Sequence record: NC_070991.1
Strand: one strand, 5' to 3'
DNA: 64,000 bases
From: Escherichia phage vB_EcoP_WFI101126
Part shown: in pieces, positions 29,946 through 63,515 of the stretch
How the letters are laid out: every line of letters begins with the position of its first letter
Position numbering within the stretch: the stretch's first letter is position 1
Made by a program: the position numbers and the translations under genes
The notes under the pieces: model-generated
What the model was told of the DNA's origin: nothing
The model's input: only the letters and a program-made list of their open reading frames with translations
The model's database searches: none

Positions 29946-30111
29946 AATCAGCTTCTTCCCAAACTCGTTTGTTTACACGATGGCTCACCTTACCCTCACG
30001 AGGAATACGACCAGTTCTCTGATCAAACAGTTGATGCTTGATCTTTTGATCTTTACGAGATTCACGATTGGAAGAGTTTTCATCATATGAACGATAATCA
30101 AATTTACCCAT
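29932..30111 (-). CDS. hypothetical small basic protein (59 aa)
   Basis: Hand-translated; AAGGA Shine-Dalgarno; overlaps HNH start by 14 nt. Confidence 0.3.
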   Translation of the reverse strand: MGKFDYRSYDENSSNRESRKDQKIKHQLFDQRTGRIPREGKVSHRVNKRVWEEADYGEV

Positions 30112-30124
30112 TATAATATCCTTA

Positions 30125-30943
30125 TTACCAAGATTTATCTAACCATGTCCAGTCGAACAGGTCTTCCGGAGTCTGACCAACAAAGAGCAGACGAGCATTC
30201 TCAAGCATCTTCTCTTCATCTTCAGTATCGAACTTCTTATAATATTCCATTCGTACTATATGATACATGGTCCACTTATCTGTAACACCAGCTAGTAATT
30301 TAGCTGCTGCCTTCTTCCCTATGCCTTGACGTCGAAGCTGAAGCTTACCGCCCCACATAACCTCTTTACGTTCCCCACATCCGGGGATATTATCCGTACC
30401 GTCTCCAATCAACATTTGATAGAAGAAATTTTGCCATGAAACTAAATCGGATACGTAGTGAGGGGGAACCTCTTTTTGCCTTTCTCCACAAGCCCAACGA
30501 TAATGCCATCCGGGAGTTATCAACAAATCTTTGTCTCTAGTACAGATGATAGTGTTCTTATCCCTACGTTGCCTTTCAGCTAGTGCATCATCAGCCTCTC
30601 TCCCAAATACATCTATGTATTCATATTTACCTTTAATGTAATCACCAACGTTTTGCCAGTGAAAAGGTCTTTCTCCGGGAGGTCTGTTTGCCTTGTAGTC
30701 TTGCTGTTTAGCAACATCGAAACGGAAGTTACCACCTTCGCTGAAGTAGAACACGATCTTGCTACAACCCGAGCGAGCTATGATTGTATCAATCTTATAC
30801 TGAAGTCGTTCAATCATGAAATTGTAATCAACTGGAACACGTCCTGTGTCAAGGAAGGGATGCTCCTGAGTAAGAGCACCTACTTCATATCGAAGAACGT
30901 CAGCATCCACTATAGCTACTTCAGGGAGCTTAACGTCTTCCAT
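30125..30943 (-). CDS. 5'-3' exonuclease / flap endonuclease
   Basis: FGREADDALA (classic GxEADD active-site motif) and LIGDGTDNIPG helix-hairpin-helix. Confidence 0.8.
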   Translation of the reverse strand: MEDVKLPEVAIVDADVLRYEVGALTQEHPFLDTGRVPVDYNFMIERLQYKIDTIIARSGCSKIVFYFSEGGNFRFDVAKQQDYKANRPPGERPFHWQNVGDYIKGKYEYIDVFGREADDALAERQRRDKNTIICTRDKDLLITPGWHYRWACGERQKEVPPHYVSDLVSWQNFFYQMLIGDGTDNIPGCGERKEVMWGGKLQLRRQGIGKKAAAKLLAGVTDKWTMYHIVRMEYYKKFDTEDEEKMLENARLLFVGQTPEDLFDWTWLDKSW

Positions 30944-30944
30944 A

Positions 30945-31471
30945 TTATTCTCCTAACAGCTTACGTATTCCATTGCGGAAATTATCGTACTCTTCAGGGT
31001 ATTCAAACCCACACTCAAGAAGAGCATAGTGAACAACCTTCAACAAATCCTGAACCTTATTCTTATCTTTGTGTCGATAAGCATATTTGATCATATTGGT
31101 TTGTTGGAAGTTCAACTGTGGGTTTGCATGATAAAACTCAATAGGTTGAATGATTTTAGATTCCGGGTTATAGTGTGCACCGCCAACCATAGTGTCTAAA
31201 GCTGGACTTCTTTTGCTGGTTTGTTTAGTTGTGGACTTAAAACTGACCACAGGAACAGAAGAGTAAACTATATACTCTTCCCCTACTGGTGGTTTTATTC
31301 TTAGTCCGCGCATGGCATATTCAATCTTCGTGTCAGTGGAACCTGAAGCAATCTCTTCAACAGACTTGCGATAGCTGTCAATAACTGCCCGTAGCATAGA
31401 GATTGTTTTGGTCATATCTTTTACTTTCTCATTAAGTACAACAACCTCTGATTCTTTGAAATCAAACAAAT

Positions 31472-31481
<10 letters not shown>
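30945..31481 (-). CDS. hypothetical phage protein, DUF3310-like
   Basis: GGAHYNPESKIIQPIEFY...NMIKYAYRHKDK...DLLKVVHYALL fits remembered DUF3310 pattern; recollection only. Confidence 0.45.
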
Positions 31482-32765
<1,284 letters not shown>

Positions 32766-33058
32766 AATGCATCTCTTTATAAACAGTTTCCGTGTTCTTC
32801 TTCCAGTTAGATAAACCGGTAAGAACTCTCTGAGCAACTTCATCAGCTGCCCTACTTCTTTCAATCTCTAACTCTTGTTGATGCTTTTCTTTATCCAGAT
32901 TGTTACTGTCTGTTCTGTACTCATTAAACTTCATGCCACCAAAGAATACAAGAGCTGAAAAGATAACAAATCCTAGATTATCACTTAAAGTGCTTTGCAT
33001 ATTGACTCCAACGAAAAAAGCCACCCGGAGGTGGCTAAGCTATAACAAGGAGAGTTAT

Positions 33059-33472
33059 TTATATGAATTTCTGCATACCTTTGATACGAGGGTTATCATC
33101 ACCAACTCTCGATTTACAGTAAGCGATAAAAGATTCAGTATTGAGGTTATCCTTTTGAGAACCCCACTGGAGATTGTCTGCTCTATTGTTGCTCGGATTA
33201 TCATCCAGATGCATAACAACAGCGTTAGGAAAAGGTTTCTCACCATGAAAAATCTCACACACTAAGATATGAATCCTTTTCTTAAACTTTCTTTTCCTGT
33301 TTACAAACACCATTCTTCCATCTTTCTCTCTATATCCGCTATATGGTTTTCCTACGAAAAGCCTAACTCCACCATTATTCGTTATGGCTGTGAAAGGCTT
33401 AATCTTAACTCTACCAAAAGATGATACGGAAAGGAAATCATAATAGGGGTGATCTTTCCAGACTTCTTCCAC
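33059..33472 (-). CDS. HNH homing endonuclease (NUMOD4-like N-terminus)
   Basis: HLDDNPSNNRADNLQWGSQKDNLN matches HNH_3 homing endonuclease core. Confidence 0.65.
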   Translation of the reverse strand: MEEVWKDHPYYDFLSVSSFGRVKIKPFTAITNNGGVRLFVGKPYSGYREKDGRMVFVNRKRKFKKRIHILVCEIFHGEKPFPNAVVMHLDDNPSNNRADNLQWGSQKDNLNTESFIAYCKSRVGDDNPRIKGMQKFI

Positions 33473-33481
33473 TATCTATCC

Positions 33482-34228
33482 TCAAAATGGGCTATCGTTG
33501 TCGTCTTCGTAAGTAGAGGCAGGCTCTTTATCAATCGTAGGGATTGAAGGAGTAGCTTCTTTCTGCTCTGTTTCAGAAGCACGAGTAATTTCACGACCAG
33601 CCAGAGGCATGTTCTTAGCGTCATTAGCTTGAGTAAGCAGGTTGCGCTGGAACGGGAACATCAGTTGATAAGATGCTACGTTCTCATCGGTTTCAGCATA
33701 CGGTTCGAAGAATACCAGAGGACTACGAGCTTCACCAACTGCTGCACGATATTTGGTTGGGATTGGAGAAATGGTCTTGATGGAGTTTTTAACTTCACCA
33801 GCTTTGTTAGTATAAGAGTTAACCAGAATGTTAACAGGCTGGCCTAACAGAACATCCTTGAACCAAGACAGATCACCTTTCAGTGCTTGAATACTTGGGT
33901 CAATCATCTTGCAAAGATCAAGAATACCAGAGTTCTTAGCTCGTGGGTTTACATCATAGCTCTTGAACTGGCAAGCCGGACGTGGTTCTAATGCCTTACC
34001 ATCGGAATCTTTACCAGTAGCATCAACACCAATCAGCTCGAAAGCTAAATCCATACGGAAAGCTGGATTCTTAGGAGTTACTGCTTTGGTCTTCGGGTCA
34101 ATCCAAGGGTCACGATTGTGAACACCCAAACCTACTACACGAACGATACGTGCTTCGTACTCACCATCAGGGATTACATCGTAGTTGGATTTACGGGAAG
34201 CAGTTGCGATAGTTGGAATCATAGACAT
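33482..34228 (-). CDS. single-stranded DNA-binding protein
   Basis: 248 aa; acidic C-terminal tail ending DDNDSPF, typical of phage SSBs. Confidence 0.6.
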   Translation of the reverse strand: MSMIPTIATASRKSNYDVIPDGEYEARIVRVVGLGVHNRDPWIDPKTKAVTPKNPAFRMDLAFELIGVDATGKDSDGKALEPRPACQFKSYDVNPRAKNSGILDLCKMIDPSIQALKGDLSWFKDVLLGQPVNILVNSYTNKAGEVKNSIKTISPIPTKYRAAVGEARSPLVFFEPYAETDENVASYQLMFPFQRNLLTQANDAKNMPLAGREITRASETEQKEATPSIPTIDKEPASTYEDDNDSPF

Positions 34229-34279
34229 ATTTTAATTTCCTTATTTAATTTGAAAGATTGTTGCTCTCTTTGAGCGGTT

Positions 34280-34296
34280 ATGTATAGTATACATTA
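34280..34296 (-). promoter_or_regulatory. palindrome ATGTATAGTATACAT containing TAATGTATAC on the minus strand (34296-34287), about 60 nt upstream of the SSB gene
   Basis: Read directly. Confidence 0.4.
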
Positions 34297-34359
34297 CGCT
34301 TATACCGATAAGAGTACTATATAATATAAGTATCTTTGGTAGTAGATATAACACACTAG

Positions 34360-34369
34360 TAATGTATAT
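34360..34369 (+). promoter_or_regulatory. plus-strand TAATGTATAT copy in the 416-bp intergenic region
   Basis: Read directly; no plus-strand gene nearby. Confidence 0.3.
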
Positions 34370-34464
34370 ATTGTATAGCTGATAAAGTTATTGCAGGCTT
34401 GTATATTGGGCAATTCACAGAATCCCTTGCAAGTACCGAAGGGCAGGAGCCACCTGCGAGATAA

Positions 34465-34530
34465 AAATAGAGAATTAAGGAATCCTTGATTTAGGTTGTA
34501 GGGACTCCTAGGGACTTTGATTCTCTATTT
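34465..34530. repeat. 11-bp inverted repeat (AAATAGAGAAT / ATTCTCTATTT) enclosing 44 nt that include a direct repeat TAGGGACT x2
   Basis: Read directly; no clean U-tail on either strand. Confidence 0.5.
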
Positions 34531-34774
34531 AAAAGAATATTAATTACTTATTACCTAAATAATTAACTAACTTACTTAAACCAAATTCAAGAATAATAGA
34601 TAAAAAGATTATTCCTAAGAAAGCTAAAAAGTAAAGGATATAAGTTACCATTCAAGTAAACCTTTAAAGTTAGTTTGTTCTACTATCCTCTGATAACGAA
34701 GATTAGAATCAGCTTGTTTCTTTAACATCTCATTATATTGATCTCTGATAGAGTCTTTATATACTACAGGTTCT

Positions 34775-35278
34775 TTAAATAATGAGATCTTGTTCTTTTC
34801 TTCTTTCATCAAAGACCTTCCTAATCTCTTGCAGAGAAACAGCTTTATAGTTAATTTGCTCCATTGATGTACAGAAATATCTCCAATCATCAATTACATG
34901 GTTATGAGTATGAGCATAAATATTAAACTTCCCTCTCATCTCGTCAGTGTGAATAGGAATATGAGTTACCCAAAACTCTTTATATTTATAATCACCAGAG
35001 ATTCTACGGAATACTTTCATCATATCGGGGAGAAGTTCTAACCTGTCATGGTTCCCCAAGACCAGATGCTTCTCTCCTTTTACTTCAGCGATGATATCAA
35101 GGGCATACTTTTCAAACACCCAATCACCGGTAAAGAAGATTTTATCACGCTTAGTTACATGATCAAATGCAGCTAGGATTGCTTTGTCATGCTCTTCAAT
35201 GTTTTTAAATTGCTTACGAAAACTACAGATGTTGCGATGACCTAAGTGACCATCTCCTGCAAAATAAACTTCAGCCAT
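34775..35278 (-). CDS. calcineurin-like metallophosphatase
   Basis: GDGHLGH...FTGDW...VLGNHD...HTHNH metallophosphoesterase motifs. Confidence 0.7.
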   Translation of the reverse strand: MAEVYFAGDGHLGHRNICSFRKQFKNIEEHDKAILAAFDHVTKRDKIFFTGDWVFEKYALDIIAEVKGEKHLVLGNHDRLELLPDMMKVFRRISGDYKYKEFWVTHIPIHTDEMRGKFNIYAHTHNHVIDDWRYFCTSMEQINYKAVSLQEIRKVFDERRKEQDLII

Positions 35279-35287
35279 AAAGACCTC

Positions 35288-35503
35288 TTAGATAGTGCAC
35301 CCGTCACAAGTTAAATCACCTAGAAGGGATAGAGAAAGTAATCTGGATTGCTCATCACTGTATAGTTGATCAATCTCTTCTTTAAGTTTTGCCAACTCCA
35401 TGAAATTGATAAGTTGACCATGTTCAAGACAGTCTGTTTTTAGTATAAACAAAACTTCAGCGTCTGTTGAATCTTCACTTGAATATTTATCAATGTATTC
35501 CAT
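35288..35503 (-). CDS. hypothetical acidic protein (71 aa)
   Basis: ORF track. Confidence 0.4.
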   Translation of the reverse strand: MEYIDKYSSEDSTDAEVLFILKTDCLEHGQLINFMELAKLKEEIDQLYSDEQSRLLSLSLLGDLTCDGCTI

Positions 35504-35518
35504 TTTTACTCCTATTAA

Positions 35519-35662
35519 TTATGACCAAGATTTAGCTTTCACTTCGACGTATGTTTTAACTTCACCTTTCAAAACTTCCTGAGAAGCATTTGCACTTTCC
35601 TCAGAGTGATGTACAACGGTGATCTCTTTCTTTCCAATCTTATAAGTGTGAATCCAAATCAT
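35519..35662 (-). CDS. hypothetical small protein (47 aa)
   Basis: Hand-translated; ATGA start/stop overlap with upstream gene; AAGGAAG Shine-Dalgarno. Confidence 0.35.
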   Translation of the reverse strand: MIWIHTYKIGKKEITVVHHSEESANASQEVLKGEVKTYVEVKAKSWS

Positions 35663-35826
35663 ACTTCTTCCTTATATTCCCAATTTCTTTCATAATATCC
35701 AGAGTTATAGTTTAGGGCGCACTTCTCGGCCTCTTCTATGTCGTCAGTGTTTAGGATATTTACCCATCCTCCAACTTCATCAAAACCTTCCTCTACTTCG
35801 TTAAACCATACACTATATTTCTTCAT
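35659..35826 (-). CDS. hypothetical small acidic protein (55 aa; internal start of track ORF)
   Basis: ATG 35826 overlaps stop of upstream small gene (ATGA). Confidence 0.4.
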   Translation of the reverse strand: MKKYSVWFNEVEEGFDEVGGWVNILNTDDIEEAEKCALNYNSGYYERNWEYKEEV

Positions 35827-35999
35827 CGAGAAGTTCTTCCCCAATCTTTTACATAGCATCGACCGTTAACCCACTTCGTCTCTGACTTAAATTCTTGAGA
35901 CAATCTCACTTCACAGTCTTCTCTACTGGCATCCCCTCCGATATCAATCAGATATAGGAATAGAGCTATACCTAAAGCCCAAAGAATTATCTTCTTCAT
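35823..35999 (-). CDS. small protein with N-terminal hydrophobic segment (58 aa)
   Basis: Hand-translated MKKIILWALGIALFLYLIDIGG...; ATGA overlap with upstream gene stop. Confidence 0.4.
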   Translation of the reverse strand: MKKIILWALGIALFLYLIDIGGDASREDCEVRLSQEFKSETKWVNGRCYVKDWGRTSR

Positions 36000-36388
36000 C
36001 GAATCACCAAAGGCTCCTCAGAGTACACAGGAGCGGCTATTTCTACAGGAGGTGCTGCCCTAAGGTCATTAAGTCTTACACCCTTCAGCATCCCATCTAG
36101 GTGGTCCTTTTGGGGGATTCCAACAGGGAAGTCGTCAATCCAGATATCTACAAAGAAACCTAGCTGCCGACATACCTCATCCTTTTGTACACCATTGCAA
36201 AAGATGATAGGAATCTGCAAACACTCTGCATCAATCTTAATATCGTGATTATCATACCCATTAGGCTCTGCAAAGCGATAAGTTACAAAACGTACATCAT
36301 AGCCCTTTTCTTGCATTAAAGCCACCACAGAGCGCCACAGCTTTTTATCTGAGGTGTAAGTGTCATCGTAATCTAAGCCAATATTCAT
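35996..36388 (-). CDS. hypothetical protein (130 aa; track gives TTG start at 36406)
   Basis: ATG 36388 with AAGGA Shine-Dalgarno; TTG start would sit inside the upstream terminator hairpin. Confidence 0.45.
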   Translation of the reverse strand: MNIGLDYDDTYTSDKKLWRSVVALMQEKGYDVRFVTYRFAEPNGYDNHDIKIDAECLQIPIIFCNGVQKDEVCRQLGFFVDIWIDDFPVGIPQKDHLDGMLKGVRLNDLRAAPPVEIAAPVYSEEPLVIR

Positions 36389-36402
36389 GTCAAATCCTTT
36401 AG

Positions 36403-36428
36403 ACAAGAAAAGCCGCCCGAAGGCAGCT
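36403..36428 (-). terminator. minus-strand intrinsic terminator: GCTGCC/GGCGGC stem, UUCG loop, U-rich tail
   Basis: Read directly from reverse complement. Confidence 0.55.
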
Positions 36429-36434
36429 TCTTAT

Positions 36435-36632
36435 TTAACTGTTCACTTTAGCTTCAAGTGTTTCGTTTTCAATACTCAAGTCAATCACTACACCAGTAAG
36501 CTCAACGACTGCTTGGCGAAGGGCATCTTTACCCATAGAGTGTACTTGAGATAAGAAGAAAGCTTTACCTTCTTCAGTGGATAGGGTTTCTTTCAGTTCA
36601 GTTGCAGTCATTCTTTTCCTCTCTCTTTCCAT
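36435..36632 (-). CDS. hypothetical protein (65 aa)
   Basis: ORF track. Confidence 0.4.
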   Translation of the reverse strand: MERERKRMTATELKETLSTEEGKAFFLSQVHSMGKDALRQAVVELTGVVIDLSIENETLEAKVNS

Positions 36633-36788
36633 AGTTCAGCCAGTTCTAAATAATATTGTGCTTCATCAGCACGTCCTTGTTCACTACAGATGGCGCTTTG
36701 ACGATAACACCAATCCGATGGCATCTCTTCCACTTCAATCTCCTTGTTACGAACCAATCAATAAGAATAGTTCATTCGTCTTATTTGT

Positions 36789-37025
36789 TCACTCTGCCAA
36801 TGCAGGTATCTCTAATCTCTTAATTGTGAATGCTTTGTCTGGAAACTTTCGAACTAGCTCCACTGCTTTGCTAATTGCTAAGTTCTCTGTTTCAAAGATA
36901 CAGAATTGACCATTCAGCGCGGTAATAGTGGAGCCACCACTGAAGATGGCCCAAGATTTATAATAACCACGAACGCTCATAACCCACCTTAGTGCGTATG
37001 CATCCAGTTTAGTCCAATCTGACAA
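36789..37025 (-). CDS. hypothetical protein (78 aa)
   Basis: ORF track. Confidence 0.4.
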   Translation of the reverse strand: MSDWTKLDAYALRWVMSVRGYYKSWAIFSGGSTITALNGQFCIFETENLAISKAVELVRKFPDKAFTIKRLEIPALAE

Positions 37026-38833
37026 TCAGAAGCCAGAGGACATTCCATGTTCAAATATTCACCCGCTTTCTTAACACAAAGCTCAGTGTGTTCTTTGAGT
37101 TTCTGTACATCATTACGATTCACTGAGAATTGGCCCTCATCGTGCATATCAATTACCTTAGCACAACGAACCCTATCCCTCTCAATCCACTTGTTTAGGA
37201 ACATCATAGCATATTTCATAACAACAGCACCAGCACATTGCAGGAGAGTGTTAAGTGCTTTATGAACCATAACCTTACCAGTGGCATCTCGTCTCATTGT
37301 AATCTTACGACCATCAACACCAATCAAGTATCCTTGAGCAGCTTTCTCTGTCATACGATCAATGAGGATTGCAATACATGGGTTCTCTGCCAAGAAACGT
37401 GCTCGCATCACTGAACCTTCGTCAGCCCCACCACCTACAATTGAACCAAGCTTAGCGTCTCCAGCACCGTAGTTGAATGCATAGATAAACGTTTTAGCAT
37501 TGTCACGAGTAGGAAGACCAGCAAGTTTCTGGTTGTGGGAGTGGATATCGCCTTCAAGGAGGATATCACGATACATAATAGCAGAAGCTAAACCACGTTC
37601 TGCCAGAGCTTTCTTAGCTGGATTGTTTTCTTCTATCGCTTCAGCAAGCATATCCCTACACTCTTTAATGAGGTAGTGAGCGAGCATACGAAGCTCAAGT
37701 CCAGAACCATCATACCCTAAGAATACTTCTTTACCAGCGGGTATGTAATATTTGTAAGCACCTACAGGTTTGTCTTTCTTCCCCGGCTTACCTTTCTCGT
37801 AAATTACGTTAGTACCTTTTCGTATATAACAACCATCAGGAACAACGTTAGTAATAACGAAAGGACGAGAATGATCACTGTCTGAGTTATAGTCAGACTC
37901 AAACAGACTGCGACACTCGTGACCAAACAGACCACGGGAGGGAATATTAACCACGATACGATGTTTGAATCGAAAAGTCGGAGTAGCGCAGCTGTTAGCT
38001 TCTGCCGAAAGTTTACCATCTTCGCGTTCCTTTGCTATGAGTCCACTGATAAGACCTAGCCTGTGAGCCGCTACAACGCGTCTCTTAAGCAAACTTCCGA
38101 CACTCCCTAGCTCACCCCCTAGCCCCTCTTCAAGAGTCTCCTCGAGGTTTGTAGGAGCTGTAGGCCACTTGTTTGATGTGGCTAGTGCTTTCTTAATCTC
38201 ATCAAACGTTACAGGATTACGACGATTAGGGTTCAATCCCAAACCAAATACGTAAGCCTTCATATAGTTCTTAGTCTTAAACCTGAAATGCTTTTCTAAG
38301 AACTTCTTAATATCAGCGTCAACCATCTCGGCTGTCTGCTTCTGTTTAGCATTGCCTCGCATCCAAGCAGTGTACCATGCTTGATACGTTCCATACTTTC
38401 TCATATCTTTCTTAATTTCGAAAGTATTCCAAGGCTTCTTAGATACATTAAACTCTGGAGGAAGAAAGCCCTCATCCATAAGAGCTTCTTTAACTCGAGC
38501 ATCTTTCGATGGGTCAAAGTCTACGTATTCAACACAGGTGAAAGCTCCACCAATATCTTCTCTTTTCAGCCCAACCCTATCACAATAGGCTTGAGGCCAC
38601 TTCTGTAAAGCTCCAGACTTCTTAAACGGCTTCATATAAGTAGAGCCGTCTAATCTCATCTTAGGTAAGAGAGGAATCAACTCTCTGTCAATATTAACAA
38701 TAATCTCTTTAAGGAGGTGAACATACCACCGAGCATTTCTTCGGTTGAAACTCACTCCGTGCTTTGCTTGCTTAGAGATTATATCAGCGACAGTCATCTC
38801 TGTCAAAAATGGAAGAGCGTCCGGGTTGCTCAC
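36989..38833 (-). CDS. DNA polymerase, family A, polymerase domain only
   Basis: 614 aa; RDNAKTFIYAFNYGAGDAKLG (motif B) and VIDMHDEGQF (motif C); no exonuclease motifs in this ORF. Confidence 0.85.
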   Translation of the reverse strand: MSNPDALPFLTEMTVADIISKQAKHGVSFNRRNARWYVHLLKEIIVNIDRELIPLLPKMRLDGSTYMKPFKKSGALQKWPQAYCDRVGLKREDIGGAFTCVEYVDFDPSKDARVKEALMDEGFLPPEFNVSKKPWNTFEIKKDMRKYGTYQAWYTAWMRGNAKQKQTAEMVDADIKKFLEKHFRFKTKNYMKAYVFGLGLNPNRRNPVTFDEIKKALATSNKWPTAPTNLEETLEEGLGGELGSVGSLLKRRVVAAHRLGLISGLIAKEREDGKLSAEANSCATPTFRFKHRIVVNIPSRGLFGHECRSLFESDYNSDSDHSRPFVITNVVPDGCYIRKGTNVIYEKGKPGKKDKPVGAYKYYIPAGKEVFLGYDGSGLELRMLAHYLIKECRDMLAEAIEENNPAKKALAERGLASAIMYRDILLEGDIHSHNQKLAGLPTRDNAKTFIYAFNYGAGDAKLGSIVGGGADEGSVMRARFLAENPCIAILIDRMTEKAAQGYLIGVDGRKITMRRDATGKVMVHKALNTLLQCAGAVVMKYAMMFLNKWIERDRVRCAKVIDMHDEGQFSVNRNDVQKLKEHTELCVKKAGEYLNMECPLASDCQIGLNWMHTH

Positions 38834-38849
38834 TTTATACTCCTTTGAA

Positions 38850-39272
38850 TTATTGGTAAAGTAAATCTGTAAATGCTTGGTTATCTTCTACCACACCTAA
38901 CATGGTAGCTTCATCACTATAAGCTCTAACCGACCCATTGACAACTGTCCAAGGAGGGGGCGGAGGAGGTATATGTGTAGCTCTGGCTTCACGAGGTTGT
39001 TCTCGTACCAGATGAGCCACAACTCTCTGATTAGCAACCTCTTCCCTTTCTCGAATAGCTCTTTGAATGTAAGCCAGCTTCATACCCCAAGCTTCTTCAA
39101 ATTCTTGAGGGTGCTTATCGCTGATAACCACATACTGACGTTCAGGAATACCAGAGCGAATCTCTGATAATAATTCATGGAACAGGTCCAGTTCGTGCTC
39201 AGTGAGATTCATTTCAATATCATCCCACTTGAGAACTAGGAAACGGTTTTGGTGTCTAGCTGGTAATGGCAT
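38850..39272 (-). CDS. hypothetical protein (140 aa)
   Basis: ORF track. Confidence 0.45.
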   Translation of the reverse strand: MPLPARHQNRFLVLKWDDIEMNLTEHELDLFHELLSEIRSGIPERQYVVISDKHPQEFEEAWGMKLAYIQRAIREREEVANQRVVAHLVREQPREARATHIPPPPPPWTVVNGSVRAYSDEATMLGVVEDNQAFTDLLYQ

Positions 39273-39435
39273 CCTACTCCACCTCTACTTCAATGTAAGT
39301 TCTCTCGCCAACATCGTCTTTTAAGACCCATGACTTGGCATCTTCTTCCGACTTAAAAGCTTTCACAACGCTGTATCCGCCTTCCCATTCATCACCGAAC
39401 CAGCGCTGTCCTACGTAAATGTATTCTTTCATCAC

Positions 39436-39720
39436 TCAACCTTTCGGGAATGGCATTAAAAATTCTACAGCAGATTTGATTTCGTTATTGATTCGTGAAT
39501 CACGGTAAGAGATAAACTTACCTTTGCTGTCACGTAACATCACATGGGTTCTGGCTGTTTTGTGAGGAAGCAAAGTGATACTGGTTGGGATAGTATCAAT
39601 TCCTACAGAGAATGAATTAATAGTCTTACTTTCTACTAGCAGATAAGACCAAGTACGGGGTTTCTGCTCCGGGCGGTTGGGGTATGTATCTCTAATCTGA
39701 ACCATAGCTAACTTATTCAT
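39436..39720 (-). CDS. hypothetical protein, tandem paralog A
   Basis: Shares ARTxVxLRxxxGKFxSYxxxxxxxxxxxAxExLxPFPKG with adjacent gene. Confidence 0.5.
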   Translation of the reverse strand: MNKLAMVQIRDTYPNRPEQKPRTWSYLLVESKTINSFSVGIDTIPTSITLLPHKTARTHVMLRDSKGKFISYRDSRINNEIKSAVEFLMPFPKG

Positions 39721-39721
39721 A

Positions 39722-39976
39722 TTAAACTCCTTTAGGGAATGGGATGAGGTTTTCTATTGCAACACGGAAAGATTTTTCTACATCTTTGTTTTTATAAGAA
39801 AGGAATTTACCATCAGCGCCACGAAGGATTACGTTAGTGCGAGCTGTATTTGGGTTTTGTTGAATCATAGAACGAATGATGTTCTCTGAACCTCTGTGTT
39901 TATTGGTGAATTTCCAACTGATAGTTTTACCGGTACGAGTTACATCAATGATATTTACAGATTTTACAATAGACAT
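39722..39976 (-). CDS. hypothetical protein, tandem paralog B
   Basis: See paralog A. Confidence 0.5.
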   Translation of the reverse strand: MSIVKSVNIIDVTRTGKTISWKFTNKHRGSENIIRSMIQQNPNTARTNVILRGADGKFLSYKNKDVEKSFRVAIENLIPFPKGV

Positions 39977-40045
39977 ATTTATTACCTAAGAAGTTTAATT
40001 TGGTTTATATAAAAGAAAAGGCCACCTGATTAGGCAGCCTTTGTT

Positions 40046-40339
40046 CTAGAGACGAAGACAAGTTTGGTAGTCGGCTTCAGTGTAATGGTTATTTCGAGAA
40101 TCGTTTTTCATTTCCTTAAGAGTAGCCCTCAAGTCAATGTTACGCTCTCTCCTTGTCCTATTCGGGTCTGTATCTTCTAATAGATGGGAGTGATCACTAC
40201 AAGAGTAGTGCTTATAGTGGTCCCTGTATCCCCTACTTGGAGAATACTTGGTCATTAAAGTTGCAACTCTTTTTACACCCTCTGATTTACAGAATTTACA
40301 ATAAGTGTGAATTGTACATCTTTTTGTTTCTGCTGACAC
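40046..40339 (-). CDS. Cys/His-rich small protein
   Basis: ORF track; CTIHTYCKFCK...HYSCSDHSH. Confidence 0.45.
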   Translation of the reverse strand: MSAETKRCTIHTYCKFCKSEGVKRVATLMTKYSPSRGYRDHYKHYSCSDHSHLLEDTDPNRTRRERNIDLRATLKEMKNDSRNNHYTEADYQTCLRL

Positions 40340-40349
40340 TATAACCTCT

Positions 40350-40664
40350 TTATGAGCTTAAAGCTCCTTTGCGTGCTCCAGCTGCTTTTCCAGCTCGATC
40401 ACCACTTTTGCCGCCGTTTGAACGGTTTGAGCTGACTGATTCAACACGTAAGTTGCTTGACGCATTAGAACCTTCAGACTTGACAGCTCGTTTGTGTCCA
40501 ACATCTTTACCTCTGACAGCAGCTTTTCCATCGCGCTTTTCAACGATGCGACGTGCACGGTGGCGCTGAGCATCTCCGCTCTTGCTCCCAACGCCTGTCT
40601 CACCACGGGCAATTGCGGTACGTCTTTCTTGTGCATAATCTCTCTTTCCTACATGATCTGCCAT
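40350..40664 (-). CDS. basic Gly/Lys/Arg-rich protein (104 aa)
   Basis: AAGGAG 6 nt upstream of ATG 40664; a second overlapping ORF (40358..40636) is open in another frame. Confidence 0.4.
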   Translation of the reverse strand: MADHVGKRDYAQERRTAIARGETGVGSKSGDAQRHRARRIVEKRDGKAAVRGKDVGHKRAVKSEGSNASSNLRVESVSSNRSNGGKSGDRAGKAAGARKGALSS

Positions 40665-40699
40665 TTAAAACTCCTTAATATATCAGTGTACACTAAGGA

Positions 40700-40709
40700 G
40701 TATACATTA
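40700..40709 (-). promoter_or_regulatory. TAATGTATAC motif, 35 nt upstream of ATG 40664
   Basis: Read directly. Confidence 0.4.
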
Positions 40710-40718
40710 TGAATGGTG

Positions 40719-40967
40719 TTAAAACTCTGCTAAGTACTTAATATCAGAGGCATATACCTCATCAAAGGAAATAGGCTCTCCGTTGTAGAGGAGTTCTATT
40801 TTCAGTATACCAGAGCATTTAGTGTCTTTAGAGTCAACTCTGATAGAGAGTTTATCAACTATCTGAGCTTTAATCTCTTCTATTACTGACTCTTGAGTAT
40901 TACTCACTCCACCCTCCCGGTGGTACAAAATCATCAGGAACGTCAATGATAGTAGGTTCTCCATCAT
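40719..40967 (-). CDS. hypothetical protein (82 aa)
   Basis: ORF track. Confidence 0.4.
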   Translation of the reverse strand: MMENLLSLTFLMILYHREGGVSNTQESVIEEIKAQIVDKLSIRVDSKDTKCSGILKIELLYNGEPISFDEVYASDIKYLAEF

Positions 40968-41081
40968 TCATGCAGGTGTCTTCATTGAACTCTTCACACT
41001 CAAAACATGCTCGTTCGATATTTTTGTAGAAGTCGATGGTTGCTGAACCATCACCACAATCTCGAATAACTAGAGCTACTT

Positions 41082-41825
41082 TCATTTATCTTGTTCCTTT
41101 TCCATAGCCTTAACAATAGCTTTACAGAAACCAGAACGAACAATGTCATCCGATTCGCCGTCTACAATCTCAGCGAACTCATACAGATCATGTTCATCAA
41201 TAAAGTTGGTAGCCCAAGTAAGACCGCTCTCACGACCACGCATATCATGCTGGTTAGTATCACCCATGCAGAACAGCTGAGAGGTTTCTCCCAATCGAGT
41301 CATGATTGAGAAGGCTTCATCTTTAGTGGTGTTCTGGAACTCATCAACAATAACAATAGCATCATTGAAAGAACGACCACGGAGATACTCCAGAGGTACA
41401 AATTCAATGTTACCATTTCCGATTTGGCATTCATAAAACCCTTTACCATATCGCTGAGTAATAACATCAATGATAGGCATCAGGTAGGGTTCAAACTTCT
41501 CACGCATCCCTCCCGGAAGCAACCCAAGAGAGTTGCCCATACCGACTGAAGGACGACTCAGGATAATCTTCTGAATCTTACCACTCTTCAGTGCATCAAT
41601 AACTGTGGAAGTGATTACAAAGGTCTTACCACAGCCCGCAGGAGCGTCTGTGAACACAACTTGTTTAGTCTTGATAGCATTTAGTAGTTCAGACTGAAAC
41701 TGGTTCTGAGGGACTACAGGCTTCGCTAAAACCACTTCTTCAAACTCTCGCTTACCTTTACGAGTGACAAGTGCTTCCCGACGAAGATCTTTCCGTGATT
41801 CTTTCCGTGATTGACGACGACTCAT
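41082..41825 (-). CDS. phoH: PhoH-like ATPase
   Basis: DAPAGCGKTF Walker A, PLEYLRGRSFNDA, IVIVDEFQN Walker B; PhoH family pattern. Confidence 0.8.
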   Translation of the reverse strand: MSRRQSRKESRKDLRREALVTRKGKREFEEVVLAKPVVPQNQFQSELLNAIKTKQVVFTDAPAGCGKTFVITSTVIDALKSGKIQKIILSRPSVGMGNSLGLLPGGMREKFEPYLMPIIDVITQRYGKGFYECQIGNGNIEFVPLEYLRGRSFNDAIVIVDEFQNTTKDEAFSIMTRLGETSQLFCMGDTNQHDMRGRESGLTWATNFIDEHDLYEFAEIVDGESDDIVRSGFCKAIVKAMEKEQDK

Positions 41826-42019
41826 TTACGCTCTCCAATTTCTTCGTAATGACATTCAGTAGTTAAACAATCTTTACAGATTGCTGTGTAAACTCTGACG
41901 TTAGTAAATCGTTTGTTCTTCCCTTTGGTTGGAGAGCCTTTGGCAAGCTCTCTGATAACCTTGTTACTTAAGTGAAGGTTTGTCCCTTCACATTTAGAGC
42001 ACTTCACCACAAAGTCCAT
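41822..42019 (-). CDS. small zinc-ribbon protein
   Basis: CSKCEG...CKDC Cys pairs. Confidence 0.45.
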   Translation of the reverse strand: MDFVVKCSKCEGTNLHLSNKVIRELAKGSPTKGKNKRFTNVRVYTAICKDCLTTECHYEEIGERK

Positions 42020-42204
42020 TCAGTAAGAGACCACAGAGAGTCACCTATGTTGGCATTGTCATTCCTGATGAGGTCTTTGATTTTATCAACATCAGTTAAG
42101 TGAGTCACATTCAAAATATCCTCAACATCCGGGGCATATTTAAATATGGCAACAATACTGTTGTGATCTTCAGCATATCTTTCTAGAACATAAACTGAAC
42201 TCAT
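42004..42204 (-). CDS. hypothetical protein (66 aa)
   Basis: ORF track. Confidence 0.4.
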   Translation of the reverse strand: MSSVYVLERYAEDHNSIVAIFKYAPDVEDILNVTHLTDVDKIKDLIRNDNANIGDSLWSLTEWTLW

Positions 42205-42345
42205 TTGAAATCCTCTAACTTAGTAGAGAGTTTAATGATGCTGTTAATACTAATAATCTGATCTTGAGAAAGAGTTCTACCTTTCATTTTACGGGACATC
42301 TTTCTTTTTGATTGTCTTTCTTGATAGAATCGGTTCTTTAAAGTC

Positions 42346-42669
42346 TTAACCATGACGTACACCTGTTTTAAGTCTGTAAACAGATAGGGCCATACAGGCC
42401 ACTGTTTCATTGTGTGGGAGATGCATTCCTGTAGAACCATCCCAATCTTTGAACTCGTTGTCAAAAACTCCGGTAGGTTCTGGATAGAGGTCTTGCAACT
42501 CAACCAAATCGTTAGCAACTTGTTGCCATTTATCATCAGACCAGATAGGGTCATCCAACCAGTAATACAAATAGGAATGGATGATCAATTGCCTTCTATG
42601 CCGATTGATTACTTCAGCGGGACTTATCTCACTTCCATTTGAAGTCCTAAATGTATTACTGTCAATCAT
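42346..42669 (-). CDS. hypothetical protein (107 aa)
   Basis: ORF track; overlapping 42201..42554 ORF judged less likely. Confidence 0.4.
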   Translation of the reverse strand: MIDSNTFRTSNGSEISPAEVINRHRRQLIIHSYLYYWLDDPIWSDDKWQQVANDLVELQDLYPEPTGVFDNEFKDWDGSTGMHLPHNETVACMALSVYRLKTGVRHG

Positions 42670-42920
42670 TTCACAACCTTAAATTTGAATGTTGTTGGGT
42701 GATAATAGTGCAACCTGTTAATGGTGTGCTTTGTTTCAAGATATATCCTACAAGAGTGACACATAACATGAGATAAACCAGTCACAGGGTTGGGTTTGAA
42801 GTTGGCGATAGGCTTCTCTTTCTTACAGAAACTACAGACTTTCTTTTCCATCTTTTCTCCAGTGGTCAACGAATTGCTGAAACACTTTATGGTCGAATGT
42901 GAAACCTCGAGCAATCCCAC
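42666..42920 (-). CDS. hypothetical Cys-rich protein
   Basis: CSFCKKEK...CHSCRIY. Confidence 0.4.
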   Translation of the reverse strand: MGLLEVSHSTIKCFSNSLTTGEKMEKKVCSFCKKEKPIANFKPNPVTGLSHVMCHSCRIYLETKHTINRLHYYHPTTFKFKVVK

Positions 42921-43214
42921 ACTCTATGAAAGTAGAAGGCATATAGTCTACATCATCTTTAGATGTATGACCATAAACTTGAATAAGCTTTTTAATCCTA
43001 TCCTTCTCTCTTCGAGGAAGCATTCTAAATGCCTCCTGAATATCTGTAATGTGTTTGATTTTCATCAGAAATTCCTGCTAATCCTCTGAGTTGTGGGAAC
43101 AGCAATATTCACATACTCCACAACAAGGGCAAATATCTACACTTGGGTCGTATGCATCATCAACTGTCATCCCACACTTGGTGCAGAACACATCATCATC
43201 TTCCTCTTCCAATA

Positions 43215-43469
43215 TTAGCCCTCCAAACAAGAACCATTAGACAGTAATTCCACGCTGTCAAGTGTGTAATAATAACCAAAGAATGGGGATGTTAACTTGG
43301 AAACCTTTTTATCAAAAAGAGATTGAGAAACACTCTCTTCTACTCCAACATCTTCAAGCTGTTGTTTTGTAGGATAGTCAGTGAAAGAGCAAAGCACTTC
43401 TATGTCCTCCCCTATGTCCGTGTCTTCAACACGGCTCAGAATCCAAATATCCTTCTTAACCATTTCCAC
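43215..43469 (-). CDS. hypothetical acidic protein (84 aa)
   Basis: ORF track. Confidence 0.4.
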   Translation of the reverse strand: MEMVKKDIWILSRVEDTDIGEDIEVLCSFTDYPTKQQLEDVGVEESVSQSLFDKKVSKLTSPFFGYYYTLDSVELLSNGSCLEG

Positions 43470-44121
43470 TCTCCAAAGTTTTCTTCAGAGCTGCCCACGA
43501 GATAGGGTAGAGCTTCGCCATCTCTTCGTCTACGGATTTAGCAAATACTCGAACTTCGTATTGAGCGTGAGAGGAGAGTCGCTGACGACACAACTCAAAC
43601 CATCCATACAAAGAACCAGTCCACACCCACTCAGTGATCATCCCCTGAGGGAGTACAAATCGGGCTTGCTCTGGTGCAATAAATTCAATCAACTTGTCAT
43701 ATGCTGCTAGAGAAGCTTCATATGCATCGTTAATTAACATTAATGCTTCAGCTCGCTCTCCGTCGATGAGCTGAACCCCTGAACCTGCATGGAGGTCCGA
43801 AGGTCTCGCAAAAATCTCTTTAGGGATGAAGACTTCAACTGCTCCATCTTTATACCGCCGGGACATTTCGTTCCACGAGAATCCAACCTGATGCTTGCCC
43901 AGCTGTCTCGCAATTGCGATAGGTGCTTTGCATCGGAAACTGACTTGCGGGTGTCGGAATGGGGTAACATGCTTCTCTCTTGCGAGGAAGTTGATGAGAC
44001 GTTCATCACGTTCATTTAAATCACCTTCACGGGTTACGCCAAAGGAAACTCGAGCTGCGTTTACTACGCTACGATCACTTCCCATAGCTTCGATTAATGT
44101 TGCTTGTAATTGTTCATTCAT
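43456..44121 (-). CDS. thyX: flavin-dependent thymidylate synthase (ThyX family), divergent motif
   Basis: AARVSF...TPFRHPQVSFRCKAPIAIARQ...NEMSRRY...SHAQYE resembles ThyX; canonical RHR appears as KHQ. Confidence 0.65.
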   Translation of the reverse strand: MNEQLQATLIEAMGSDRSVVNAARVSFGVTREGDLNERDERLINFLAREKHVTPFRHPQVSFRCKAPIAIARQLGKHQVGFSWNEMSRRYKDGAVEVFIPKEIFARPSDLHAGSGVQLIDGERAEALMLINDAYEASLAAYDKLIEFIAPEQARFVLPQGMITEWVWTGSLYGWFELCRQRLSSHAQYEVRVFAKSVDEEMAKLYPISWAALKKTLESGNG

Positions 44122-44136
44122 CCGTGAATTTCCTTA

Positions 44137-44346
44137 TTAATATTCCTTGATTGGGGATACCACAAAACCACCAAGAGGTGAGGTAAAAGATTTATGTAAG
44201 CTTATTTTGCTATAAATCTTTGGAGCCATCTTAAGAGCCTTCTTAAAACGACGAGCATCTTTACGAGTAGCAAAATGCTCTGTAACAGGTATAGAATGGT
44301 CTTGGTAGATATAATACATCACCGTCCAGTATTTTCCCATAATCAA
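44137..44346 (-). CDS. small basic protein, member of a 4-gene paralog family
   Basis: Shares F.TR..AR..KK ... S.H ... KV.Y pattern with 46201..46816 genes. Confidence 0.5.
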   Translation of the reverse strand: MIMGKYWTVMYYIYQDHSIPVTEHFATRKDARRFKKALKMAPKIYSKISLHKSFTSPLGGFVVSPIKEY

Positions 44347-44615
44347 ACACCTAGTGCAGTAGTTAAAAATGCTTTCAGGTTTGCCTCAGTCTGCATACCA
44401 GAGAGGCTGTAGTGTGCACCACTGTTACGGTCAGGTACGACGAAAGCAGGTATGCTTCGTACACCATATTTAACAGCTTGTTCACGACCATCTCCTTCAA
44501 GGATGTTAATCTCTTCCACTTCTACATCAAACTCCCTAACAACCTTCTCAAAGGTAGGAGCCATTGCTTTACATGGAGCACACTGATCACTATAAAACTT
44601 AATTACTTTACTCAT
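44343..44615 (-). CDS. thioredoxin (start trimmed to ATG 44615)
   Basis: FYSDQCAPCKAMAP: CxxC active site in thioredoxin-fold context. Confidence 0.7.
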   Translation of the reverse strand: MSKVIKFYSDQCAPCKAMAPTFEKVVREFDVEVEEINILEGDGREQAVKYGVRSIPAFVVPDRNSGAHYSLSGMQTEANLKAFLTTALGV

Positions 44616-44805
44616 TCTATTCCTTGTTAATAAACAGATTGATATGACGCTGGGTAGCAGGAACAACAATAAAAGATTTATACTGACCTTTTGCTAAGTC
44701 ATGAGCAATCTTCTTTGTCTGACCAAGACCCATCACACAGCCACTAACGATAATGGCATGTGCTTGTAATTCTTCAGGTAGGTTTAGTTTCACTCTTTGG
44801 GTTCC

Positions 44806-44991
44806 TTATAGCATACAAAGAATAATAACAAGAGGTAGTGTTATAGCAAAATGTACCAGAACAACACTACCTAGCTTGATAGCTTTAACATCCTCTTCTG
44901 CTGGGTTTTCTTTAATTGCTAAATTTCGAGCTTTATATATAACAGTACCAACTATTAACGACCACACGGCCCACACAATCAGTGAAATCAT
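44806..44991 (-). CDS. small two-TM membrane protein (61 aa)
   Basis: MISLIVWAVWSLIVG...; paralogous to 45001..45180. Confidence 0.45.
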   Translation of the reverse strand: MISLIVWAVWSLIVGTVIYKARNLAIKENPAEEDVKAIKLGSVVLVHFAITLPLVIILCML

Positions 44992-45000
44992 ATCAAATCC

Positions 45001-45180
45001 TTATGCAGTCAGGAGGTGAAGCAGGAATGGGATAACAACAGCTACGATAACCATGATAGTTGATGCTGTTTGAATCTCACCTTTCTTATCAGGAGTTTCT
45101 TCAATAAGCTTACCAGAAGCCCAATAAATACCACCACCAATAAAGATAGCCCAAATACCCCATACGATTGCTGATAACAT
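45001..45180 (-). CDS. small two-TM membrane protein (59 aa), paralog of 44806..44991
   Basis: Hand-translated MLSAIVWGIWAIFIGGGIYWA...; AAGGA Shine-Dalgarno. Confidence 0.45.
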   Translation of the reverse strand: MLSAIVWGIWAIFIGGGIYWASGKLIEETPDKKGEIQTASTIMVIVAVVIPFLLHLLTA

Positions 45181-45241
45181 ATATCTATATCCTTATAAAT
45201 AAGTTCGCCCCACCTCGGGTTAGGAGACAGGGCGGAGGTTT

Positions 45242-45853
45242 TTAGTAAGACACGTCACCACTTGAATGGGACATGTTGCTCTTGACGAAGTAGCAATACT
45301 TGCCAAGACCTTCATTAATTTCTTGAAGCATACTCTGATCGACAGGGTAGGATGCTAAATCGCCATCAAACTCATCCATCTTCTCAATAATACACATCAA
45401 GGTCATGCACATATCAGAGAGCATACCGTCCATATCCAGATCAGCATTACCCTCTGAGAACCAAGCATGGGAGAGGTAGTTAGCTGCTGTAGCATCCACC
45501 TTAACACAATGGTATCGCATACGCTCAGCAATACGATCTCCTACTTGTCGTGCGTAATCTTCCAGCTCATCAAACATACCATGAACACCCTGAAATCCTG
45601 CACCAGAGACATTCCAGTGGTAGTTCTTAGCTTTGATATGCAAGAGTTCCATGTTAGTTTGTAAGCAGCTTAGGATGTGTTCTAGGCTGTTTCCACTAAT
45701 CATACCCTGCATAGTTTCAAGGCGAGAGATTGAAAGCTCAGACCGGTCTAACATGTTATATTCTGCACGACCCATCTCAGGTAAATCAAAGACATTCTTA
45801 TGCATTTGGGTTTTCTCCATCAAGTTCAACTGAGTTAGCAACGTTACGTGCAA
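45242..45853 (-). CDS. Dps/ferritin-like protein (true start possibly 45820 or 45805)
   Basis: HWNVSGAGFQGVHGMFDELEDY matches the Dps ferroxidase-site pattern HWN..G..F..H..DE. Confidence 0.6.
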   Translation of the reverse strand: MHVTLLTQLNLMEKTQMHKNVFDLPEMGRAEYNMLDRSELSISRLETMQGMISGNSLEHILSCLQTNMELLHIKAKNYHWNVSGAGFQGVHGMFDELEDYARQVGDRIAERMRYHCVKVDATAANYLSHAWFSEGNADLDMDGMLSDMCMTLMCIIEKMDEFDGDLASYPVDQSMLQEINEGLGKYCYFVKSNMSHSSGDVSY

Positions 45854-46127
45854 TATTATCCATTACCTGCTGGGTAATTACGATGCAGTTCTGTGGGTCT
45901 ACTGACTTAGAACGCCCCATTTCAGGGTCATACACCTTAACTCGCTTAGCAGTTGAACCTGTAACCTGAAGAACCTTCAACAGATATCCCTGATTACCAA
46001 TAGACCAAGCAACAACATCACGATTCTTGATAAAGCGACCAAGCATATCACGATGATAAAACTGTTGCATCACCTTGGATTTTGTAATCTCTTCAGTGGG
46101 CGGGGCCACTTTACTCAAATCTAACAT
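45798..46127 (-). CDS. hypothetical protein (109 aa)
   Basis: ORF track. Confidence 0.45.
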   Translation of the reverse strand: MLDLSKVAPPTEEITKSKVMQQFYHRDMLGRFIKNRDVVAWSIGNQGYLLKVLQVTGSTAKRVKVYDPEMGRSKSVDPQNCIVITQQVMDNIARNVANSVELDGENPNA

Positions 46128-46165
46128 AACTCTCTCCTGTAAAAATACAAATTCTTATTGTACTC

Positions 46166-46175
46166 TATATACATT
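46166..46175 (-). promoter_or_regulatory. AAATGTATAT motif variant, about 39 nt upstream of ATG 46127
   Basis: Read directly. Confidence 0.35.
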
Positions 46176-46200
46176 TGAGAGTTACCATATCTACTACCAA

Positions 46201-47553: not shown

Positions 47554-47562
47554 TCTTATTCC

Positions 47563-48873: not shown

Positions 48874-48874
48874 T

Positions 48875-60813: not shown

Positions 60814-60824
60814 TATACCAACCT

Positions 60825-61187: not shown

Positions 61188-61189
61188 AC

Positions 61190-62937: not shown

Positions 62938-62946
62938 AGACCACCC

Positions 62947-63192: not shown

Positions 63193-63194
63193 AC

Positions 63195-63446: not shown

Positions 63447-63515
63447 TCACTCACTAAAAGTTCTGCCGACACAGGAATAACTTGGCACCAGCTAGACGGT
63501 GCTGTTACGTTACCA

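Follow-up and report, generated by a model that had tools for sequence, protein, structure and literature searches.

A T7-like DNA polymerase and its proofreading exonuclease encoded as two separate genes in an Escherichia Kuravirus

We analyzed a 64,000-nucleotide (nt) stretch of DNA from Escherichia phage vB_EcoP_WFI101126 (NC_070991.1), hereafter referred to as the window, with respect to its replicase genes. A family-A DNA polymerase and a DEDDy 3'-5' exonuclease are encoded there as separate genes, with exactly 10,041 nt from the stop of the exonuclease to the start of the polymerase. The features at the locus on which our analysis turns, all on the minus strand, are the following (lengths in amino acids [aa]).

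36989..38833, minus strand: family-A (T7-like) DNA polymerase, polymerase domain only, 614 aa (Pfam PF00476, PHROG 17)
38834..48874, minus strand: stretch between exonuclease and polymerase, 10,041 nt with ~30 same-strand genes
48875..49432, minus strand: free-standing DEDDy 3'-5' exonuclease, 185 aa (Pfam PF01612, PHROG 38876/403), homologous to the N-terminal proofreading domain of T7 gp5
49426..51216, minus strand: T7 gp4-like primase-helicase, 596 aa (Pfam DnaB_C and Toprim_2; PHROG 239, E 1e-175)

The polymerase open reading frame (ORF) has 614 codons and a GTG start, with an AAGGAG Shine-Dalgarno sequence 7 nt upstream. Its sole Pfam domain is DNA_pol_A at residues 361 to 611 (E 6e-23; 81.8 bits versus a cutoff of 34.3). 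Motif A spans Y374-R382 (YDGSGLELR, with D375 and E380), motif B spans R443-G456 (RDNAKTFIYAFNYG, with R443, K447, Y451, Y455, and G456), and motif C consists of H564, D565, and E566 (HDE). All of these named catalytic-motif residues (D375, E380, R443, K447, Y451, Y455, G456, and H564-D565-E566) were invariant in 71 homologues. The best match among PDB sequences was T7 gp5, whose residues 289 to 704 were aligned with a phmmer E-value of 1.3e-32; Klenow reached only 1e-6. Foldseek searches with an AlphaFold2 model of the polymerase (predicted local distance difference test score [pLDDT], 91.4) again placed T7 gp5 first, at 6.5e-26, with Bst Pol I at 4e-16. Residue Y451 aligns with T7 Y526, so that a tyrosine occupies the dideoxy-discrimination position of motif B (B3). 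Pfam score, motifs A, B, and C, and a closest structure that is T7 gp5 with tyrosine at B3 all assign the protein to T7-like family A; the one hallmark it lacks, a 3'-5' exonuclease domain in the same polypeptide, marks it as the known split variant of that subfamily. The 614-aa product is an intact polymerase domain with palm, fingers, and thumb.

The polymerase is longer than the ~420-aa polymerase part of its fused relatives, proteins of ~600 aa that contain both activities. The excess consists of three lineage-specific insertions, modeled by AlphaFold2 with good confidence and absent from both T7 gp5 and the fused ~600-aa relatives.

Insertion 1, aa ~133-240: helical bundle
Insertion 2, aa ~318-365, just before motif A: beta-rich
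Insertion 3, aa ~392-420, after motif A: helical hairpin

The 185-aa exonuclease matches PF01612 (DNA_pol_A_exo1) with an E-value of 2e-8 and 34.6 bits versus a cutoff of 23.6. Its PHROG match (38876/403) is named "DNA polymerase exonuclease subunit," the same label that public Kuravirus records use. Exo I reads FDIE (D12, E14), Exo II reads HNIIDFD (N63, D68), and Exo III reads YCEQD (Y152, D156). Across 54 free-standing exonuclease homologues, down to 32% identity, D12, E14, N63, D68, and D156 were invariant and Y152 was conserved in at least 90%. T7 gp5 residues 3 to 178 gave the best match among PDB sequences (E 1.9e-11). In the AlphaFold2 model (pLDDT 94.5), the exonuclease fold spans residues 6 to 184 of 185. 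As for the polymerase model, the top 27 Foldseek matches were all T7 gp5 chains, here at E-values of ~1e-10, and every other nuclease came in at 1e-5 or worse; the runners-up (DpoZ, family-B exonuclease domains, RNase T, and RRP6) were 4 to 5 orders of magnitude weaker. Exo I (DxE), Exo II (Nx2-3[F/Y]D), and Exo III (Yx3D), together with the Pfam score and an RNase-H-like fold nearest to polymerase exonuclease domains, identify a nuclease of the DEDDy PolA-proofreading type. We conclude that the product is an intact DEDDy proofreading domain, predicted to be catalytically competent. Relative to the related phage SU10, the ratio of nonsynonymous to synonymous substitutions (dN/dS) was 0.12 for the exonuclease gene and 0.015 for the polymerase gene. 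Purifying selection and the kept catalytic residues are the signatures expected of two working enzymes.

How do the two proteins relate to each other? Within a single PHROG profile (phrog_17), the exonuclease matches positions 667 to 826 and the polymerase matches positions 836 to 1233. Joined into one sequence, they align colinearly over their whole length with T7 gp5 and a set of fused ~600-aa relatives from metagenomes (P0108, P0110, and P0114-P0118), with no missing and no duplicated segment. The alignment places the break in the linker between the exonuclease and polymerase domains, at about T7 residue 198/199. Because the break falls exactly in this linker, both folds were left whole. 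Separate genes whose products are jointly colinear with an unsplit PolA are what characterizes a split exonuclease/polymerase PolA. A duplicated linker at the break, as from duplication followed by degeneration, was ruled out, since the exonuclease tail and polymerase head occupy consecutive segments of the T7 linker; an apparent overlap of the two in another alignment was an effect of forcing them against shorter fused relatives. Given their E-values and invariant catalytic residues, chance is far from sufficient to account for the identification of the two proteins. As judged from sequence comparison, these data show that exonuclease and polymerase correspond to colinear, nonoverlapping halves of one ancestral T7-gp5-like protein cut in its linker.

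Two observations concern the new termini. A C-terminal tail, AGFDxxNPP (48875..48925 in the window, minus strand), is conserved among the free-standing exonucleases and missing from the short fused relatives; the T7 linker segment YFPPE resembles it. This tail could serve to dock the exonuclease onto the polymerase or the helicase. In phage LUZ24 (L004), the exonuclease ends with RTVDWLKSE (9440..9483) and the polymerase begins with VDWRKSLF (11827..11850), and the VDWLKS/VDWRKS repeat may preserve a trace of the splitting of the gene.

We also looked for a remnant of the exonuclease in the polymerase. PF01612 did not match the polymerase in the Pfam scan, and even with every HMMER filter disabled, a profile built from the 54 free-standing exonucleases gave it a score of −0.6 bits; a vestigial exonuclease domain was thereby ruled out. 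In T7 gp5 and the fused relatives, the stretch aligned with the N-terminal residues of the polymerase is the one after the exonuclease domain. The AlphaFold2 model opens with two long helices, the counterparts of those at the start of the T7 polymerase domain, and not with an RNase-H-like sheet. The window holds one copy of each gene, and no second copy of either was found in it. An earlier note on this DNA, made from the sequence alone, had described a 614-aa polymerase with motifs B and C and no Exo motifs and, 10 kb away, a 185-aa gene with Exo I to III beside the primase-helicase. All of this is borne out: motif A is present as well, and the exonuclease gene in fact starts 7 nt within the end of the primase-helicase gene. 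The comparison with T7 gp5 and Pol I that the note had called for favors T7 gp5 by a wide difference in E-value and reveals no Exo motifs in the polymerase. The same note had allowed that the small protein might be an unrelated RNase, a candidate ruled out by its sequence and fold matches, which are to T7 gp5.

Codons 9 to 19 of the polymerase gene (38806..38778, minus strand) contain a perfect extended sigma-70 promoter sequence, TTGACA-17 nt-(TG)n-TATAAT (12/12), the sole site with at most one mismatch across the 64-kb window. SU10 and Ptacy1532 have the identical sequence; relatives at 88% identity keep the −10 element and differ by synonymous substitutions in the −35 element (TTAACG). Because the site lies downstream of the polymerase start codon, RNA initiated there would be too short to specify the complete polymerase. 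The match may simply reflect the codons used for L-T...A-D-I-I, or the site may be a real internal promoter.

We also examined the history of the two proteins. Exhaustive searching of 1.84 billion cluster representatives with the exonuclease returned 1,220 matches at E-values of ≤1e-10. Among the best 150 of these 1,220, relatives past the four closest matches were mostly N-terminal domains of long proteins: 82 of the 150 exceeded 550 aa, and motifs B and C were both present in 68 of the 82. None of the 35 that were 250 aa or shorter contained motif B. Identity to the window proteins was 45 to 49% (polymerase) and 40 to 45% (exonuclease) for the fused ~600-aa clade and 42 to 46% and 35%, respectively, for LUZ24-like proteins. 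Since both halves rank their relatives alike, the two genes share one history. A shared history is what fission of a fused ancestor would produce, and this origin is well supported by the sequence comparisons over separate recruitment of the two genes. The historical fission of a T7-like polymerase suggested in the earlier note thus gains support from the colinear halves and from their congruent similarity to fused relatives. A fused relative keeps the T7-like gene order of primase-helicase, ligase, and polymerase. The gene order of the window recurs in all Kuravirus-like phages examined and in the LUZ24 group, and the split is therefore an old one and no recent accident. Common synteny and a common break point would favor a single old fission event.

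The layout is widely shared. Nucleotide identity and synteny with type members place the window in the genus Kuravirus (Gordonclarkvirinae; phiEco32/SU10-like coliphages). Over the polymerase gene, for which a nucleotide search matched 94 records, DNA identity to deposited genomes is 97 to 99.9%: 99.9% to Escherichia phage Ptacy1532, 97.1% to SU10, and ~97% to ES17 and many other Kuravirus. The 16-kb replication region from polymerase to primase-helicase is 93 to 97% identical over 92 to 94% of its length in several Kuravirus genomes, and at least 80% of it is present in 53 records. In the RefSeq record of SU10, gp051 is annotated as "DNA polymerase" and gp075 as "DNA polymerase exonuclease subunit," with order and spacing as in the window, and gene annotation across the intervening stretch matches in SU10 and Ptacy1532. 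Synteny of exonuclease and polymerase is kept in SU10, Ptacy1532, LUZ24, and two metagenomic relatives (exonuclease identity, 48 to 58%). In these last two, the exonuclease directly follows the primase-helicase and the polymerase lies 9.7 kb or >10 kb further on. Across LUZ24 and the distant relatives, the distance from the exonuclease-side module to the polymerase varies from 2.3 kb to >10 kb, and the adjacency of primase-helicase and exonuclease is constant. The split is a conserved trait of the whole Kuravirus group and also occurs in other T7-like PolA lineages.

Could the split be only apparent, arising from an assembly or frameshift artifact, a pseudogene, intron splicing, or a split intein? 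Split DnaE inteins do join distant gene halves, close relatives of the window carry a group I intron in the polymerase gene, and LUZ24 has an intron in its polymerase gene (PMC3517423). The halves in the window, however, lie 10 kb apart with ~30 conserved genes between them; the layout recurs in 53 to 98 independent genomes, both ORFs come with a start codon and a Shine-Dalgarno sequence of their own, and both genes are under purifying selection. With the exonuclease domain occupying residues 6 to 184 of 185 and the polymerase fold beginning at residue 6, there is no room for intein halves, and no Rfam family, introns included, was found in 30000..64000. A split intein or trans-spliced gene was rejected on these grounds, and the data exclude an artifact or spliced gene altogether. 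In Kuravirus-like contigs with an 88%-identical polymerase (L006 5354..5617; also L007), an ORF-less group I intron follows ...KTFIYAFN in motif B (RF00028, 102 bits, E 2.6e-27). Because it interrupts motif B, the polymerase in L006 and L007 is called as pieces of 454 aa and 139 aa. The polymerase gene of the window has no such intron and is uninterrupted.

Other genes of the intervening stretch, and one beyond the polymerase, are listed below.

47563..48873, minus strand: CCA-enzyme-like nucleotidyltransferase, ~436 aa (PHROG 12715, E 4e-240)
47020..47553, minus strand: dCTP deaminase (Pfam/PHROG)
45242..45853, minus strand: ferritin-like DNA-binding protein (PHROG 3636 "DNA binding protein"; Pfam PF00210, E 3e-7)
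44343..44669, minus strand: thioredoxin (Pfam PF00085, E 3.8e-13; PHROG 22)
43456..44121, minus strand: ThyX (Pfam/PHROG)
41082..41825, minus strand: PhoH-like ATPase (Pfam/PHROG)
30125..30943, minus strand: 5'-3' exonuclease (FEN/T7 gp6-like), 272 aa (PHROG 107 "exonuclease," E 2e-64)

The 3'-5' exonuclease gene and the primase-helicase gene share 7 nt (GTGGTAA), from the GTG start codon of the former to the TAA stop codon of the latter; GGAG lies 7 nt upstream of the GTG. The primase-helicase itself combines an N-terminal CxxC...CxxC zinc ribbon, a TOPRIM domain, and a DnaB-like helicase. Its C terminus (49426..49530, minus strand) is an acidic tail with a net charge of −9 over the last 35 aa and a tryptophan at the end; the T7 gp4 tail that binds gp5 is likewise acidic and aromatic ended. 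At its other end, the 3'-5' exonuclease gene stops 1 nt before the ATG of the nucleotidyltransferase gene, whose poly(A)/CCA-polymerase head domain scored below the Pfam cutoff (PolyA_pol, 20.5 bits).

This last neighbor bears on the question of whether the 3'-5' exonuclease serves a purpose other than proofreading, such as nucleotide salvage by degradation of host DNA or primers, or trimming of RNA or tRNA 3' ends together with the nucleotidyltransferase, leaving the polymerase without proofreading. RNase D belongs to the DEDDy nucleases, and the exonuclease gene is followed after 1 nt by the poly(A)/CCA-polymerase-like gene and then by dCTP deaminase. Its closest matches are nevertheless polymerase proofreading domains, with T7 gp5 at ~1e-10 versus ~1e-4 to 1e-5 for RNase T and RRP6. 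LUZ24 and locus L008 keep the exonuclease beside the primase-helicase with no nucleotidyltransferase next to it, and an ARAGORN scan of the window detected no tRNA genes; a functional link among exonuclease, nucleotidyltransferase, and tRNA was ruled out on these two grounds. The exonuclease moreover co-occurs with the polymerase-only gene across the Kuravirus group (PMC9965538). We therefore regard a different job for the exonuclease as very improbable.

The 5'-3' exonuclease scored below the Pfam cutoff (5_3_exonuc_N, 26.4 bits), and its Ptacy1532 counterpart is annotated as a 5'-3' exonuclease; it is a third Pol I-type nuclease/polymerase activity with a gene of its own. The product of 45242..45853 looks Dps-like and has a counterpart with a weak Ferritin match in L008. 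Between thioredoxin and ThyX, Ptacy1532 (L002 8237..8716) and L006 (533..1024) carry an HNH homing-endonuclease gene that the window does not have. The gap in the window (44122..44342) is only 221 nt and contains a 69-aa ORF without a family match. The HNH gene is a presence/absence variation of a mobile gene inside the interval between exonuclease and polymerase. Upstream of the primase-helicase, Kuravirus, LUZ24, and one metagenomic relative share a cluster of amidoligase/COOH-NH2 ligase, GATase (GlmS-like), RimK-like, and gamma-glutamyl cyclotransferase genes, located as follows.

SU10 (L001), 1..2805: modification-gene cluster
LUZ24 (L004), 1205..6903: modification-gene cluster
L009, 1..7795: modification-gene cluster

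The replication module is accompanied by a conserved module for the modification of peptides or metabolites.

What would two such halves do in the infected cell? The explanation that we consider probable is that an ancestral gp5-like exonuclease-polymerase gene was split in two and that its products reassemble noncovalently as a gp5-like proofreading heterodimer. Such a heterodimer would move the primer end back and forth between its polymerizing and exonucleolytic sites, as T7 gp5 does. Its partners would be the gp4-like primase-helicase, which has an acidic C-terminal tail, and the separate 5'-3' exonuclease. Translational coupling of the exonuclease gene to the primase-helicase gene would set the exonuclease dosage. 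The phage's own thioredoxin would possibly join the complex: by analogy with T7 gp5 and host thioredoxin, it is a candidate processivity partner of the polymerase, and in the related phage Privateer the phage thioredoxin has been proposed as a processivity factor (PMC7881722). Residues ~56 to 105 of the polymerase align with the thioredoxin-binding loop of T7 gp5 and are ~20 aa shorter. Binding of the exonuclease to the polymerase and gp5-like proofreading are suggested by the position of the break in the linker, by the need of PolAs for their exonuclease domain, and by the complex predicted for the split polymerase of cyanophage S-SBP1. Proofreading in trans would be a natural consequence of the split.

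Several points weigh against this picture. That the two proteins associate physically and that proofreading is supplied in trans are both inferences. Terminator-like hairpins occur between the two genes (e.g., 45234..45206 and 40042..40017), and because of these and the 10-kb spacing, exonuclease and polymerase may be made in unequal amounts. The three insertions in the polymerase could alter the interface between the two proteins. Finally, in a rough neighbor-joining tree of the polymerase, the fused ~600-aa clade fell between the LUZ24-like and Kuravirus-like polymerase-only clades with very short basal branches, and the corresponding exonuclease tree was poorly resolved; because the fused clade nests between polymerase-only clades, a single fission event is not established, and the trees would accommodate one split or two in the Kuravirus-like and LUZ24-like lineages as well as a re-fusion in the fused clade.

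The gene coupling raises an alternative in which the exonuclease proofreads distributively, with free enzyme trimming after the polymerase dissociates and no stable complex, or rides on the primase-helicase. Autonomous proofreading exonucleases that trim mismatched ends freely provide a model for the distributive mode. It is to the primase-helicase gene, and not to the polymerase gene, that the exonuclease is translationally coupled; that adjacency is what LUZ24 and the distant relatives keep while the polymerase lies at variable distances, and the AGFDxxNPP tail could be a docking peptide. The structural evidence points the other way: the exonuclease domain of T7 gp5 packs against the polymerase domain, and the break lies exactly in the linker with both folds whole. 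In addition, PolAs need the exonuclease domain for stability, and AlphaFold2 predicts that the split S-SBP1 proteins reassemble like an unsplit PolA (PMC10201439). We consider a distributive or helicase-tethered exonuclease unlikely, and it ranks as the foremost of the three alternatives, followed by another nuclease role and, last, an artifact or spliced gene. A more elaborate proposal, which we regard as a long shot, is that the Kuravirus/LUZ24 split was ancient and independent of that in cyanophage and that the exonuclease joined a primase-helicase sub-assembly, to which translational coupling would tie its synthesis and the AGFDxxNPP tail would dock it, where it might be shared by the leading- and lagging-strand polymerases or be titratable. 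Were the exonuclease part of such a sub-assembly, the mutation rate could be adjusted in a way impossible with a fused enzyme.

Returning to the proofreading heterodimer that we favor, its two-gene architecture is already known: dozens of deposited Kuravirus genomes carry it in their annotation, and several papers describe it. As a discovery, then, the split matters little. Its residual value is that of a clean natural family-A polymerase with its proofreading domain as a separate subunit. In a literature search, we found no biochemical work on the Kuravirus exonuclease subunit or on the exonuclease-polymerase pair. A purified coliphage pair could be a convenient system for studying domain recognition in PolA and the tuning of fidelity by subunit dosage.

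Separate polymerase and proofreading subunits have precedents of differing closeness. In E. coli DNA polymerase III (Pol III), the polymerase alpha (DnaE) and the proofreading exonuclease epsilon (DnaQ) are likewise separate subunits. Pol III and archaeal PolD belong to unrelated polymerase families (C and D), and epsilon is a DEDDh and not a DEDDy enzyme. The likeness to the pair in the window is one of principle only, with no homology of the polymerase subunits implied; PolD, with its subunits DP2 and DP1, has been compared with split PolA (PMC10201439). T7 gp5 is the best solved-structure match of both halves and has in common with them the Exo I to III residues, motifs A to C, and the motif B tyrosine, and both phages have a gp4-like primase-helicase with an acidic tail. 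T7 gp5 differs in being a single polypeptide, in its longer thioredoxin-binding loop, and in its use of host thioredoxin; the window, for its part, has a polymerase with three extra insertions and a thioredoxin gene of the phage's own.

The T7-like PolA of cyanophage S-SBP1 is also split into exonuclease and polymerase at the linker (Czernecki et al. 2023, PMC10201439). Its genes are adjacent and overlapping, the product of a recent +1 frameshift. In the window, by contrast, 10,041 nt and ~30 genes separate the two instead of a 1-nt frameshift, coupling ties the exonuclease to the primase-helicase, and deeply diverged lineages have the split in common. The split in the window is a different event, older than the 2023 cyanophage case and with genes much further apart.

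Closer still are the Bruynogheviruses (LUZ24, PaP3, and tf), which encode a "DNA polymerase exonuclease subunit" and a "DNA polymerase part II" with the linker break as in the window. The LUZ24 order of GATase-like, RimK-like, and GGCT genes, primase-helicase, overlapping exonuclease gene, small genes, and polymerase is also that of the window. LUZ24 differs in an exonuclease-polymerase spacing of only 2.3 kb and in the intron in its polymerase gene, and its proteins are ~44% (polymerase) and ~35% (exonuclease) identical to those of the window. The separate genes of the LUZ24 group and their likeness to phiEco32 are described in PMC3517423. Within Kuravirus and Gordonclarkvirinae, finally, the replicase of phiEco32, SU10 (gp051 and gp075), and YF01 (gp49 and gp70) has the same genes, lengths, order, and spacing as that of the window, and nothing material differs; for YF01, a 2023 paper states that the 5'-3' and the 3'-5' exonuclease subunits of the DNA polymerase are each encoded separately (PMC9965538).

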